Of a stretch of DNA of 64,000 nucleotides, positions 2,894 to 6,307 are shown in pieces. The notes under the pieces are model-generated. The model ran no database searches. It was not told where the DNA came from and worked only from the letters and a program-made list of their open reading frames with translations. The stretch covers positions 64,001 through 128,000 of the forward strand of contig JBGPFC010000002.1 in NCBI GenBank assembly GCA_041483195.1, given 5' to 3'. Within the stretch, counting starts at the first letter, position 1, and every line of letters begins with the position of its first letter. The stretch comes from Candidatus Eiseniibacteriota bacterium. Lineage in GTDB: Bacteria; Eisenbacteria; RBG-16-71-46. The position numbers were made by a program, and so were the translations under genes.

Positions 2894-3949
2894 ATGAAGC
2901 TCGTCGGCATCCTCGGACTTCCCGGGTCCGGCAAGACCACGTTGTTCGAGATTCTCATGCAGGGCGCCGGCGCCGCGCATGCCGGCGGCGGCGCGCGCGA
3001 CCAGGTCGGCGTCGTCAAGGTTCCCGATCCGCGGATCGACCGGCTCTCGGCGCTCTACCATCCGAAGAAGACCACGTTCGCCAACATCCAGTTCGTGGAC
3101 AGCGCGGCCGCGGGGCAGGGCAGCGCCCGCGCCGCCGCGAAGGGCCCCGATCTGTTCTCGGCCGTGCGCAACTGCGACGCGCTGATGGCGGTCGTGCGTG
3201 ACTTCGAGAACCCGGCGGTGCCGGCGGAAGGCGGGGTCGATCCGGTCCGCGATCTCCGCAATCTCGAGGCCGAGCTCATGCTCAACGATCTCGCGATCGC
3301 GGAGACCCGTCTCGAGCGGATCGAAAAGGAATTGCGCATCGGCAAGAAGCAGGGGGAGCGCGAGCACGCGCTGCTCCAGCGCTGCCGCGGGATGCTCGAA
3401 GCGGAGCGTCCGCTGCGCGGCGAGTCCTTCGACGCCGAGGAGACGAAGCTGCTGCGGGGATTCCAGCTTCTTTCGCTGAAACCACTGCTGGTGGTGTACA
3501 ACCAGGATGAGCATTCCCGTCGCGTGCCGGCCGCGCCCGGCCCCGGCGCGCTGGCGGTCGCGTTGCGGGCGCACCTGGAGCGCGAGATCGTGAACCTCGA
3601 GGCCGGGGAGCGCGAAGCGTTCCGTCGCGAGATGGGGATCGACGAGGACGGGCTCTCCCTTCTCATCCGCGCCTGCTACGAGGTGCTGGGCCTGATCGCG
3701 TTCTTCACAGTGGGACCCGATGAGGTGCGGGCATGGACCATCCACCGCGGAGAGCGGGCGGTGGACGCGGCCGGAGAGATTCACAGCGACCTCGCCCGCG
3801 GTTTCATACGCGCGGAGGTGATCGGCTGGGAGCAGTTGCTCGAAGCGGGCACCCAGGCGAAGGCGCGCGAAAAGGCGTGGCTCCGACTCGAGGGCCGCGA
3901 ATACGTCGTGCAGGACGGGGAGTGTCTCGAGATTCGCTTCAACAAGTGA
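2894..3949 (+). CDS. ychF: YchF/Obg-family ATPase (atypical motifs)
   Basis: GLPGSGKTT P-loop, VKVPDPRIDRL, LLSLKP, FFTVGPDEVRAW, AGEIHSDLARGFIRAEV, RLEGREYVVQDG C-terminal TGS-like domain. Confidence 0.9.
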   Translation: MKLVGILGLPGSGKTTLFEILMQGAGAAHAGGGARDQVGVVKVPDPRIDRLSALYHPKKTTFANIQFVDSAAAGQGSARAAAKGPDLFSAVRNCDALMAVVRDFENPAVPAEGGVDPVRDLRNLEAELMLNDLAIAETRLERIEKELRIGKKQGEREHALLQRCRGMLEAERPLRGESFDAEETKLLRGFQLLSLKPLLVVYNQDEHSRRVPAAPGPGALAVALRAHLEREIVNLEAGEREAFRREMGIDEDGLSLLIRACYEVLGLIAFFTVGPDEVRAWTIHRGERAVDAAGEIHSDLARGFIRAEVIGWEQLLEAGTQAKAREKAWLRLEGREYVVQDGECLEIRFNK

Positions 3950-3963
3950 TGAGGGAGGCGCCG

Positions 3964-4587
3964 ATGACGCGCGCATCGCGCGAGGCCCGGCGCGCGGCGC
4001 CGCCGCTCGCGGGGCGGATGCTCGCGCTCTCGGTGCTGGCGCTCGCCGCGCTGCGGGTGCCGGTCGCGAGCGCGGCGACGCCGCCGAAGCTGGCCCAGCT
4101 CCAGGGGCATCTCGCGTTCGGATACGCGCGATTGCTGACCCGGGACGCGCCGGCCGGCTCGATCGCGGTCGACGGCGGGATCGATGTTCCGCTCGATGCC
4201 GATTGGAGCGCCGGGGTCACGCTCGGGTACGCGTTGCTCGGCGGCCGGACCGTCGAGCGCGGCAGCCTGATCGCCAGCCTGGACTACAGCGTGTTCGAAG
4301 CGATCGCGTTCGCGCACGTTCGGCCCTCGGGTCTCGGACCCATCGGCCGCCTCTCGTTCGGCCCCGGTTTCTTCTCGACCCGCGCGACGCTCTCGACGTC
4401 GGGCGGAGGCGCGTTGTTCAGCGACCTCGCGCGCGAGGAATTCGTCCCCGGATTCGCGATCGACGCGACGCTGATGAAGCACAAGCCATCGCCGGTGCGG
4501 GTGGGGTTGGAGCTCGGCACCCGCGTCGCGTTCCTGAGAGAGGAAGTCTGGACCCTCAGCGGGGTGCGGATCGCGTTCCACTATTAG
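3964..4587 (+). CDS. Hypothetical exported protein, probable small outer-membrane beta-barrel
   Basis: GGGAGG RBS; signal peptide ending VASA; alternating amphipathic strands; C-terminal VRIAFHY beta-signal-like end. Confidence 0.6.
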   Translation: MTRASREARRAAPPLAGRMLALSVLALAALRVPVASAATPPKLAQLQGHLAFGYARLLTRDAPAGSIAVDGGIDVPLDADWSAGVTLGYALLGGRTVERGSLIASLDYSVFEAIAFAHVRPSGLGPIGRLSFGPGFFSTRATLSTSGGGALFSDLAREEFVPGFAIDATLMKHKPSPVRVGLELGTRVAFLREEVWTLSGVRIAFHY

Positions 4588-4624
4588 CCGGCCGCCGCTC
4601 CACTCCCGGGTGAACCATTCTTCG

Positions 4625-4653
4625 TTGACTCGATCCGCCTCCCTTTCTAGAAT
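4625..4653 (+). promoter_or_regulatory. Near-consensus sigma70 promoter for a small intergenic transcript
   Basis: TTGACT-17 nt-TAGAAT. Confidence 0.7.
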
Positions 4654-4681
4654 TCGCGCCACGCGGAAAGGAGGTGGTCCA

Positions 4682-4726
4682 TTGACTAGCACCCAGTTGT
4701 GGATCGCGGAGGTGGCTGTCCGCTAG
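4682..4726 (+). CDS. Putative 14-aa peptide MTSTQLWIAEVAVR
   Basis: TTG start 7 nt after GGAGG of a perfect AAAGGAGGTG Shine-Dalgarno; TAG stop at 4724-4726. Confidence 0.45.
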   Translation: MTSTQLWIAEVAVR

Positions 4727-4779
4727 ACGGCCCACCGACGGCGGTTGGGTCGTCCGCGAATCCCAACAGCCTACCGGTT

Positions 4780-4816
4780 ACGCGGGGGGCGAGCGGTTGC
4801 CCCCCGCGTGCTTTTT
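4780..4816 (+). terminator. Rho-independent terminator
   Basis: Perfect 11-bp stem ACGCGGGGGGC / GCCCCCCGCGT, 8-nt loop, then GCTTTTT. Confidence 0.8.
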
Positions 4817-4891
4817 CCGCCGGGGGCGCGAGCGCCCGCGGCCGCCGATCCGCCGGGCGTGAAATCGCCGGCGCCCCGCCCGGCGGCGTTT

Positions 4892-4921
4892 TTGACACCC
4901 GCGGAGGGCGGCGGGTATCCT
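4892..4921 (+). promoter_or_regulatory. sigma70 promoter of the rib operon
   Basis: TTGACA-18 nt-TATCCT immediately upstream of the FMN aptamer. Confidence 0.65.
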
Positions 4922-4933
4922 CGCCGGCTCAAG

Positions 4934-5097
4934 CTCCTTCGGGGCGGGGTGCGAAGTCCCCACCGGCGGTAAAGCCCGCGAGCGGGAGCGGACGGAATCC
5001 GGCGTCAGCCGGAATCGCGCGGCATGCCGCGCCCACCGCTCCTGCTGATCCGGTGAAACTCCGGGGCCGACCGTGACAGTCGGGATGGAAGAAGGAG
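4934..5097 (+). promoter_or_regulatory. FMN riboswitch (RFN element)
   Basis: CTTCGGGGCGGGGTG...TCCCCACCGGCGGTAAAGCCCGCGAGC...GATCCGGTGAAACTCCGGGGCCGACCGT...AGTCGGGATGGAAGAAG matches the RFN consensus; lies upstream of ribD. Confidence 0.95.
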
Positions 5098-5150
5098 GGG
5101 ATCGCGCATGCCGGCCGGCAGGCGCGAAGCTCGCGCGTTGCGCACGTTCC

Positions 5151-5184
5151 GCCCCGTGGTGCAGAGACCACGGGGTTTCTCGTT
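5151..5184 (+). terminator. Riboswitch expression-platform terminator
   Basis: GCCCCGTGGT / ACCACGGGGT stem followed by TTCTCGTT, just before the ribD start. Confidence 0.65.
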
Positions 5185-5191
5185 AAGGGCC

Positions 5192-6307
5192 ATGGCGACC
5201 AAACGACAGCAGCCTGGATTGAGTTTCATGCAGCGCGCGCTGCGCATCGCGGAGCGCGGTCGCGGGCGCACTCGTCCAAACCCGATCGTCGGGGCGGTCG
5301 TGGTGCGTGGCGGCCGTGTGGTGGGGGAAGGCTGGCATCGCGCGCTCGGCAGCGACCACGCCGAGGTCGAGGCGCTGCGCGCGGCCGGCGCGCGCGCACG
5401 CGGGGCGACCCTGTACGTCACGCTCGAGCCCTGCGCGCACACCGGGCGCACTCCGCCATGCGTGGACGCGCTGGTGCGCGCGGGCATCCGGCGCTGCGTC
5501 GTCGCGCTGCGCGATCCGCACGCGATCGTGAACGGCCGCGGCCTCCGGGCGCTGCGCCGCGCGGGGGTGGACGTCGAGCTGGGGCTCTGCGCGGCGGAGG
5601 CCCGCGACGGGCTCGAAGGTTACTGGCTCGCGCACACGCGCGGCCGCCCGCGGGTGACGTGGAAGGTGGCGGCGACGCTCGACGGCAGGATCGCGGATGC
5701 GCGCCGGCGTTCGCGCTGGATCACGGGTCCGGCGGCGCGCGCGCACGGCCATCGGATGCGCGCGGCAGCTGACGCGGTGCTGATCGGCGCCGGGACGGCG
5801 CGCGCCGACGATCCGCGACTCACCACGCGGCTCGGCCGCCCGGCGCCCCAACCGCTGCGCGTGCTGTGCGACACGCGTCTCGCGAGCCCATTCGGCCTGC
5901 GGCTGTTCGGGCCATCGCTCGCGCACGGCACGGTGGTGGCGTGCGGACCGCGCGCGCCGCGTGCCCGCGAGCGCGCGCTCGAATCGCGGGGCGTCAGGGT
6001 GTGGCGCCTGCCGCTGCGTGACGGCCGGGTCTCGCCGCGCGCGCTCGCGCGCCGGCTGGTCGCCGCGGGCTGCCACGAGGTGCTGCTCGAGGGGGGCGCG
6101 ACGCTCGGCACGGCATGGCTGCGCGCGGGGCTGGTCGATCGCGTCGCGCTGTTCACCGCGCCGCGGGTGCTGGGGGCCGAGGGGCTCGCGTGGTGTGGCG
6201 CGCTCGCGCGCGGCGGGCTGGCGAGCGCGCCGCGCGGCCGGCTGGTCGAGCACCGCCGATTCGGCGAGGATGGGTTCACCATGGTCGCGCTCGAAAGGAA
6301 TGCGTGA
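5192..6307 (+). CDS. ribD: Bifunctional riboflavin deaminase/reductase
   Basis: [44 protein letters not shown] motifs; start may be ATG 5192 or 5228. Confidence 0.95.

Follow-up and report, generated by a model that had tools for sequence, protein, structure and literature searches.

A stand-alone small RNA gene between ychF and the riboflavin operon

We analysed a 64,000-nucleotide stretch of DNA (the window; contig JBGPFC010000002.1, positions 64,001 to 128,000, assembly GCA_041483195.1) from a Candidatus Eiseniibacteriota bacterium whose genome comprises 4.17 Mb in 93 contigs at 70% GC. At 4625–4816 of the window, downstream of ychF and a second open reading frame (ORF) and upstream of a riboflavin (rib) operon, lies what its sequence indicates is an independent, stand-alone and unannotated small RNA (sRNA) gene with its own promoter, a short ORF and an intrinsic terminator. 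The position of the -10 box predicts a transcript start near A4661, and the RNA would therefore be ~156 nt long (about 4661–4816). A consensus scan of the region 3500–6000 found two promoter-like sites compared to 0.0 expected from shuffled sequence; the second (TTGACA-18-TATCCT, 4892–4921) lies ahead of a flavin mononucleotide (FMN) riboswitch at 4931–5100. The riboflavin operon therefore appears to have its own promoter and its own regulator. Five further loci of the same subtype in the same bacterial family (L002–L006) keep a TTGAC(A/G)-17-TAnnnT promoter at an equal distance to ACGCGG. The 3’ arm of the terminator (4799–4809) is followed by TGCTTTTT. At curated thresholds, an Rfam scan of the window returned only the FMN riboswitch (88.8 bits) and a tRNA (2201–2273), and no match at gathering thresholds for the sRNA locus.

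A previous interpretation of this locus, made from the letters of the window alone (the sequence-only reading), had described a near-consensus promoter, a 16-nt complement to the 16S rRNA 3’ end with one G-U wobble, a TTG-started 14-codon ORF, a central hairpin followed by a perfect 11-bp terminator, and a separate promoter for the rib operon that makes the unit independent. All of these features were recovered in our analysis (Table 1).

Table 1 Features of the small RNA locus in the window
Feature	Position	Strand	Basis
Sigma-70-type promoter, TTGACT-17-TAGAAT	4625–4653	+	10 of 12 consensus positions
P1a 5’ arm CGCG, pairs with 4705–4708	4662–4665	+	Family covariation; window pairs checked
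16S-tail complement GAAAGGAGGTGGTCCA	4666–4681 (4665 with terminal G·U)	+	16S comparison
Internal loop displaying GAAAGGAGGUG, core of the 16S complement	4666–4676	+	Unpaired between P1a and P1b in model R1
P1b 5’ arm GUCC, pairs with GGAU 4701–4704; end of the 16S complement	4677–4680	+	Covariation
Mini-ORF, TTG start, 14 codons, TAG stop; MTSTQLWIAEVAVR then stop	4682–4726	+	Translation
3’ arms of P1b (GGAU, 4701–4704) and P1a (CGCG, 4705–4708), within the ORF	4701–4708	+	Family alignment; 16S comparison
Second Shine-Dalgarno-like block GGAGGUGG (4708–4715); P2 5’ strand GGUGGCUG (4711–4718)	4708–4718	+	Repeat; covariation
P3 hairpin (GACGGCCCA / UGGGUCGUC), the central hairpin of the sequence-only reading	4726–4754	+	Predicted fold; pairs checked
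Joining strand with conserved GAAUCC (4758–4763)	4755–4766	+	Alignments A2 and A3
P2 3’ strand CAGCC-U-ACC, U4772 bulged	4767–4775	+	Covariation; pairs checked
Intrinsic terminator, 11-bp stem 4780–4790/4799–4809, T-run 4812–4816	4779–4816	+	Arms 100% complementary

An extended complement to the 3’ end of 16S rRNA

A search of the 93-contig assembly for the genome’s own 16S gave 0 matches. The 16S comparison used four genomes of the same family with complete 16S, all of which end in ...GCGGCTGGATCACCTCCTTTCT. The complement pairs with this tail at 16 of 16 positions, one of them a G·U, and at 17 if G4665 pairs with the last U. The predicted duplex energy of the full 17 nt is -29.5 kcal/mol, compared to -19.3 kcal/mol for the 12 nt GGAAAGGAGGUG (4665–4676, the loop together with G4665) and -8.7 kcal/mol for a bare GGAGG. 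At the level of sequence and predicted energy, then, the complement is longer than an ordinary Shine-Dalgarno (SD) site, as the sequence-only reading had maintained.

The complement is the only match to its own sequence in the window even when two mismatches are allowed, none of 100 shuffled windows contained any match, and a search of all 4.17 Mb of the genome gave a single occurrence of the pattern AAGGAGGTG[AG]TCC. The A/G position left unfixed in this pattern covaries with its internal partner in helix P1b, although A and G are both able to pair with the tail’s U. Structure offers a further explanation for how long the complement is, because its 3’ GUCC is the 5’ arm of the conserved helix P1b.

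Outside the window, the same genome carries a strong SD, AAAAGGAGGTGG, near position 11770 of contig C9 on the minus strand, followed by a GTG-started 16-codon ORF. More AAAGGAGGTG sites are found on contigs C4, C9 and C11.

The RNA is related to Ms_IGR-5 and occurs in several phyla

The Rfam family Ms_IGR-5 (RF02471) could be aligned over its full length (model positions 1–184) to 4659–4816 with a score of 27.2 bits, compared to a cut-off of 45. In a search of 21 genomes this model reached E ≤ 0.01 only in the window’s genome, with a single match (E = 4.3e-4), and found nothing in the 20 relatives, whose copies have diverged too far for it. The sequence-only reading could not assign the RNA to a family; this alignment ties it to a described one. 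It had also named a hit to an already characterised Rfam family as grounds for giving up its interpretation; Ms_IGR-5 is no such case, since the available part of its documentation gives it no function. A second family, CC2171 (RF01867), scored 22.7 bits at the locus against a cut-off of 75.

BLAST detected related DNA in 12 of 40 other relatives. To look further afield, we scanned one genome per species for AAGGAGGTGRTCC and GAGGTGGC separated by a gap of 15–45 nt, and at least 120 stretches matched. Among the 80 titled matches listed, 64 were labelled Actinomycetota (Streptomyces, Micromonospora, Mycobacterium, Nocardioides, Acidimicrobiia, Solirubrobacteraceae and others) and 9 Acidobacteriota, with single matches labelled Planctomycetota, Leptospira, Syntrophobacter, Seohaeicola, a ‘Rickettsiales’ metagenome-assembled genome (MAG), Krumholzibacteriia and Candidatus Eisenbacteria. 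The last of these, a MAG locus (L091), is the closest named relative of the window copy among the matches listed. When 20 loci were tested with Rfam, only those of Mycobacterium (172 bits), Micromonospora (98.5) and Streptomyces (85.2) exceeded the cut-off.

We built a covariance model (R1) from an alignment of 48 diverse copies (A3) with three helices placed by eye. It matched 97 of 100 loci, including the Rfam-positive Ms_IGR-5 loci; it failed on the Planctomycetota and Seohaeicola loci and on a third that is a chance match inside a long ORF. The window copy, which is itself among the training sequences, scored 77 bits, and the Rfam-positive loci scored 87–105 bits. Loci labelled Acidobacteriota, Syntrophobacter, Krumholzibacteriia, Eisenbacteria and the ‘Rickettsiales’ MAG reached at least 42 bits, and the Leptospira locus and three Terriglobia/Bryobacterales loci only 22–26 bits. 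With R1 the element was found in 27 of the 40 other relatives, always as one match per genome. Of 120 other genomes in the window’s phylum, 76 gave a match, and a single genome had two, both at contig ends; one genus had no match in any of five genomes. One sister-family genome (G026, family f3; loci L007 and L154) is unpublished; it provides one row of A2, A3 and R1 and is the sole basis of no claim. On these comparisons, the window RNA is probably a divergent member of an sRNA superfamily that is covered in part by Ms_IGR-5.

A collection of plasmids yielded one match, in a 2.66-Mb record from Nocardia farcinica; a replicon of this size is chromosome-sized, and the match is therefore no evidence of mobility. 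A full member of the family (R1 73.9 bits, E = 1e-18), complete with ORF and terminator-like end, is present at 398–511 of MT835602.1 (L200), a 25.7-kb unannotated fecal scaffold labelled ‘UNVERIFIED: Bacteriophage sp.’, which may be actinobacterial DNA under a wrong label or sequence flanking a prophage.

Covariation supports helices P1 and P2

The relatives share a common design of five parts: a P1 helix that holds AAAGGAGGUG in an internal loop, a GUCC-GGAY arm, an ORF of 12–19 codons, a second GGAGGUGG block that pairs with a downstream strand to form P2, and a stop codon at a fixed distance from this block. In the window, the second block is a copy of GGAGGTGG inside the ORF at 4708–4715, a repeat absent from the sequence-only reading, and the GGAUC at the junction of the P1b and P1a 3’ arms reproduces five letters of the 16S tail. 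The strand opposite the GAAAGGAGGUG loop has zero or one base, and alignments A2 and A3 retain the joining strand as (G)CGAAUCC or AAUCC. P3, the first pair of which uses the G of the ORF stop codon, varies in length, could not be aligned across the family and was omitted from R1.

In the R1 alignment (A4), standard pairs occupy 92.1% of 1520 cells, compared to 29–46% when the partners are slid by 1–3 columns. Both sides of a pair have changed in 101 cells against 30.2 in shuffles, a value reached by none of 500 shuffles. All three modelled helices are 88–93% paired, with P2, helix 3 of the model, standard-paired in 93.3% of its cells. Three of the four P1a pairs between them appear as AU, CG, GC, GU and UA, and among 97 sequences the first pair of P1b (G4677-U4704 in the window) is GC in 68, GU in 12 and AU in 11. 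Changes on both sides are also seen in the outer pairs of P2 (4711–4718 with 4767–4775), and one pair of an earlier alignment (69/126) is UA in 6 sequences and AU in 6.

For the window sequence, enforcing the family structure gives -76.4 kcal/mol compared to an unconstrained minimum of -80.5. The alternative helix in the minimum-energy fold (4696–4710/4753–4767) is invariant in family f1 and is reduced to GGAU/AUCC in f3, and thus is not supported as conserved. A pairing of AAGGAG with the terminator tail proposed by RNAalifold was taken to be an artefact of the U-run.

The reading frame is kept and the peptide is not

The mini-ORF translates as (L/M)TSTQLWIAEVAVR followed by stop, that is, (TTG) T S T Q L W I A E V A V R stop. 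We analysed the frame in 131 distinct family sequences. In 121 of them an ATG (49), TTG (48) or GTG (24) lies 7–14 nt past GGAGG and a stop codon 4–10 nt past the second block, the latter at exactly +7 in 110 sequences. Eight of the remaining ten, all from Acidimicrobiales, have an in-frame CTG at +8 with an open frame; one has ATC and one (L105) is the chance match inside a long ORF. A start near the SD shares its frame with the stop in 113 sequences, compared to 18 and 8 in the other two frames, and ORF lengths of 11, 12, 13, 14, 15, 17, 18 and 19 codons occur; insertions and deletions therefore come in whole codons. The stop codons interchange (TAG 94, TGA 14, TAA 13). Seven sequences, among them the sister family f3, read the conserved block in another frame, and in these the frame is still open and the stop has shifted to fit; the f3 peptide ends in ...DRGGGSS and stop.

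The amino-acid sequence follows a different pattern. Among close pairs of 65 distinct 12-codon ORFs we counted 183 nonsynonymous and 62 synonymous codon changes, with 135, 61 and 87 differences at codon positions 1, 2 and 3, so that the third position shows no excess and the first is the most variable. The constant E-V-A of the peptides results from in-frame reading of the RNA block GAGGUGGC, and the common W-I, R-T or W-T likewise from the P1b arm, GGAU or GGAC. These statistics reflect constraints on the RNA rather than on a peptide. Judged by sequence, the ORF has the marks of a translated short frame, with an SD-spaced start, a frame kept across insertions and deletions and interchange of stop codons, and shows no purifying selection on its amino acids. 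Together, the kept frame and the codon statistics suggest that the frame is under selection and the peptide product is not.

The sequence-only reading had suggested an unannotated small RNA or micropeptide gene. An independent sRNA with a conserved micro-ORF agrees with the first part, and the codon statistics speak against a specific micropeptide. The homologue, covariation and codon comparisons that it had proposed have thus yielded relatives, covarying helices P1 and P2, and a frame conserved without its peptide.

Flanking genes and subtypes

The flanking genes vary by lineage, as judged by Pfam matches of 21 flanking ORFs. In the window, YchF and an ORF that matches no Pfam family precede the element and RibD follows it; the copy in a Mycobacterium MAG neighbours a class IV aminotransferase, and the Leptospira copy an M61 peptidase and a chemotaxis receptor. 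A conserved neighbour gene was sought and rejected: an all-against-all comparison of the flanking ORFs gave synteny only at the level of lineages, and the Pfam names differ.

Within the window’s family there are two subtypes. Type A, found in the window and in 6 genomes in all, lies in the window between ychF and the FMN riboswitch, and the flanking ORFs of the window type each recur in nine loci of families f1 and f3. Type B is found in 14 genomes (loci L156–L169; G001, G002 and 12 further same-family genomes), two of which belong to the window’s genus, and in the three genomes checked (G001, G002 and G016) it is at another locus with no YchF or RibD within ~3 kb. The two types did not occur together, each genome having one or the other, and blastn found no type B copy in the window’s genome. 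In G001, G004 and G016 the FMN riboswitch follows ychF without the element in between. Type B loci also have a conserved hairpin (GGGAGGG...CCCTCC) ~20–30 nt upstream of their SD.

Around the window locus itself, the Pfam-less ORF upstream of the sRNA (3733–4587) overlaps ychF (2894–3949) at its listed start, and its true start is thus probably later. The promoter spacer ends in CCTCCCTTTC (4638–4647), a near reverse complement of the SD loop that would be relevant only if transcription also begins upstream; a C/T-rich run just ahead of the -10 box is also seen in relatives. A second terminator-like hairpin, with arms at 4850–4859 and 4877–4886 that are 100% complementary, stands between the sRNA terminator and the rib promoter, and the T-run that follows it overlaps the -35 box of that promoter. 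The same region contains a 28-nt direct repeat (4816–4843 and 4849–4876, 75% identical). Downstream of the FMN riboswitch are a further terminator-like hairpin (5151–5176) and then ribD (5192–6307; RibD_C and deaminase domains).

Expression of family members

In a soil RNA library (run X18), 6% of the sampled words were present, and a 334-nt contig from a relative covers 4655–4790 with 6 differences. This contig starts 43 letters upstream in promoter-like sequence, and, after 74 unlike letters, continues as far as the beginning of the riboswitch (4911–4990). Either DNA carried over into the library or read-through could account for it.

Published work on other family members points to expression. 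Ribosome footprints on Ms_IGR-5 homologues in Mycobacterium abscessus and M. smegmatis are described in the available portion of one study (PMC4974804), and a family member appears as an sRNA in Streptomyces RNA-seq and transcript-boundary data in the accessible parts of two others (PMC8079986, PMC8780764). CC2171 is a northern-validated sRNA in Methylorubrum, whose triggering condition is not identified in the part of the preprint at hand (bioRxiv 10.1101/2022.01.24.477521). In open-access papers and bioRxiv, queried by Rfam names, sequence and peptide strings and topics, we found no account of the element’s design, of its unification across phyla or of its subtypes.

Discussion

The closest described relative of the window RNA, Ms_IGR-5, is an actinobacterial sRNA found in Mycobacterium smegmatis, and the available part of its record gives no function. 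The two have the same order of blocks, with a 5’ arm, GGAAGGAGGUGGUCC, a short frame, GAGGUGGCUG-CCGCUAG, a hairpin, GCGAAUUCC, CAGUCACC and a terminator, and the window and the Rfam-positive loci fit one covariance model. Unlike Ms_IGR-5, the window copy comes from a non-actinobacterial genome and scores below the family’s cut-off, its ORF has 14 rather than 12 codons, its P1b closes with a G·U instead of a G-C pair, and its P2 contains a bulged U. CC2171 of Caulobacter likewise stands alone as an sRNA. It carries GAAAGGAGGUGAUCC close to its 5’ end, a start codon straight after this sequence, an open frame and a terminator, and many of its members have an internal GGAUC downstream. However, its ORFs, translated by eye in six of ten alphaproteobacterial members, are ~22–30 codons long, only one of the ten members has the GAGGUGGC block, and R1 gives CC2171 members only 9.7–20.5 bits. 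Common descent of the two RNAs is plausible.

In the trp and ermC leaders, a short ORF is translated to melt RNA helices, and a second SD-like sequence is sequestered by pairing. The window RNA resembles such leader-peptide and translational-attenuation leaders in having a short ORF that runs through helices and a sequestered second SD-like sequence. In contrast to attenuators, it has its own promoter and terminator, serves no structural gene, has no start codon after the second SD-like block and lacks conserved neighbours; no conserved, regulated downstream gene was found in the same transcription unit. A different parallel is offered by 6S RNA, which sequesters RNA polymerase by mimicking a promoter and comes free through templated synthesis. 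By analogy only, the window RNA shares with 6S RNA the mimicry of a substrate of a core machine, a single-copy gene, a distribution over many phyla and a built-in short ‘product’ that could drive release. Its target would be the ribosome and not the polymerase.

We hypothesize that the RNA is a ribosome-engaging miniature mRNA in which the act of translation matters, an interpretation that we think is the probable one given the conserved sequence features. Its P1 loop would display GAAAGGAGGUG, which matches the free 3’ tail of 16S rRNA perfectly, and the next four bases of the match, GUCC, would be kept in P1b by an internal GGAU(C) that copies letters of the same tail. The 14-codon ORF begins right after P1b, crosses the 3’ arms of P1 and the second GGAGGUGG block that forms the 5’ strand of P2, and stops at the foot of P3. 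In this scheme, a 30S subunit would dock on the loop, and the 16S tail would then displace the internal GGAU from GUCC and so invade P1b. Translation of the ORF would follow, with the passing ribosome melting P1 and P2, and the RNA would refold after termination. Downstream, candidate effects are that the GAAUCC strand and the 3’ strand of P2 become exposed, that RNA stability changes, or that the pool of free ribosomes is affected. More broadly, the pattern of conservation leans towards a ribosome-engaging or ribosome-sensing riboregulator, in which ribosome engagement and transit, and not the peptide, would have been selected.

Several observations weigh against this interpretation. The only RNA-library contig over the element includes upstream promoter-like sequence and shows no discrete transcript, and a bound, non-translating ribosome would also leave footprints of the kind reported. 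A frame of 12–14 codons will often be open by chance in DNA of 70% GC. The scan pattern fixed both SD-like blocks, and thus their invariance in the scan sample is partly by construction; furthermore, the relatives are not independent and their counts overstate the number of evolutionary events. A4 was likewise fitted to its model, and kin sequences inflate its counts, yet despite the fitting we regard P1a and P2 as secure because of the slid controls and the many pair types. Finally, five genomes of the same order that have no R1 match, including the single-contig G022 and the five-contig G196, have no such element: in these the full AAAGGAGGTGATCC signature occurs only in 16S genes, and the other matches to the shorter pattern searched for fall in ordinary sequence without the element’s blocks. 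The RNA, though widespread, is therefore not universal, and in these genomes it is dispensable or has been replaced by something unrecognised.

Among the alternatives we considered, the one that fares best makes the RNA a store or decoy for 30S subunits, the translational counterpart of 6S RNA; a 30S trap or decoy had also been raised in the sequence-only reading. By this analogy it would hold free 30S subunits off mRNAs through up to 17 bp, and ribosomes would exit by translating the mini-ORF when initiation factors and charged tRNAs are plentiful, their transit unzipping the RNA. The predicted duplex, far stronger than that of an ordinary SD, the unpaired SD in a conserved loop, the frequency of weak starts (48 TTG and 24 GTG among 121 sequences, and CTG in eight more), the single copy per genome and the lack of peptide conservation would all be expected of such an RNA, and a decoy that uses the frame as its exit, as 6S RNA uses its product RNA, fits all the facts. 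However, a single-copy sRNA would have to be very abundant to titrate ribosomes, and the element is missing from some complete genomes. A simple decoy, moreover, has no need of P2 or of a fixed stop position, and a pure decoy leaves the start, frame and stop unexplained. We consider this explanation unlikely, while giving it some weight.

The RNA could instead be the message for an active peptide of 12–19 residues (...EVAxx). The strong SD, the correctly spaced start, the kept frame and stop, a C-terminal E-V-A in 113 of 131 sequences (frame 0) and the footprints on family members described in the accessible part of PMC4974804 fit such a gene. The E-V-A, however, is the in-frame reading of the GAGGUGGC block, which seven sequences read out of that frame to give endings such as ...DRGGGSS; the excess of nonsynonymous changes, the high variability of first codon positions and an N-terminal part that varies freely among close relatives also run counter to a selected peptide, and we judge a micropeptide gene to be quite improbable. 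Marginally less probable still is an antisense RNA to the 16S 3’ end, with a role not in initiation but in guiding the tail or protecting it while 30S subunits mature, in dormancy or under nuclease attack. The complement does extend to the last base of the tail in the four same-family genomes, but a guide needs no start codon, frame or stop, all of which are conserved, and the last four bases of the complement are internally paired; the 16S tail is too invariant for co-variation to be used as a test. A cis-acting leader or attenuator of the riboflavin operon is very improbable: the order ychF, element, FMN riboswitch, ribD in the window, the recurrence of both window-type flanking ORFs at nine f1/f3 loci and the soil RNA-library contig that runs from the element into the riboswitch would suit it, but a strong terminator and a separate promoter intervene, the riboswitch is the operon’s own regulator, three genomes have the ychF-FMN arrangement without the element, and elsewhere the neighbours are unrelated genes.

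The family itself is already known through Rfam, and on its sequence the window copy is a sub-threshold member from another phylum. What appears to be new is the unification of members across phyla, the helix-displayed SD with an internal mimic of the 16S tail, the conservation of a frame without its peptide, and the mutually exclusive subtypes.

Rfam lists Ms_IGR-5 and CC2171 as sRNAs restricted to particular lineages, and the available parts of their records give no function. The Ms_IGR-5 design extends well past the Actinomycetota, and its conserved parts are those that face the ribosome: a displayed, perfect SD, an internal sequence that repeats letters of the 16S tail, a frame kept open as its peptide drifts, and another SD-like block, this one held in a helix. 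If the decoy explanation were true, the RNA would couple the pool of idle ribosomes to growth conditions, from a single copy, in several phyla. If our preferred interpretation, a ribosome-engaging miniature mRNA, is true, Mycobacterium smegmatis, Streptomyces and perhaps Caulobacter would already carry an RNA, widespread and open to testing, through which the translation machinery is acted on or sensed.

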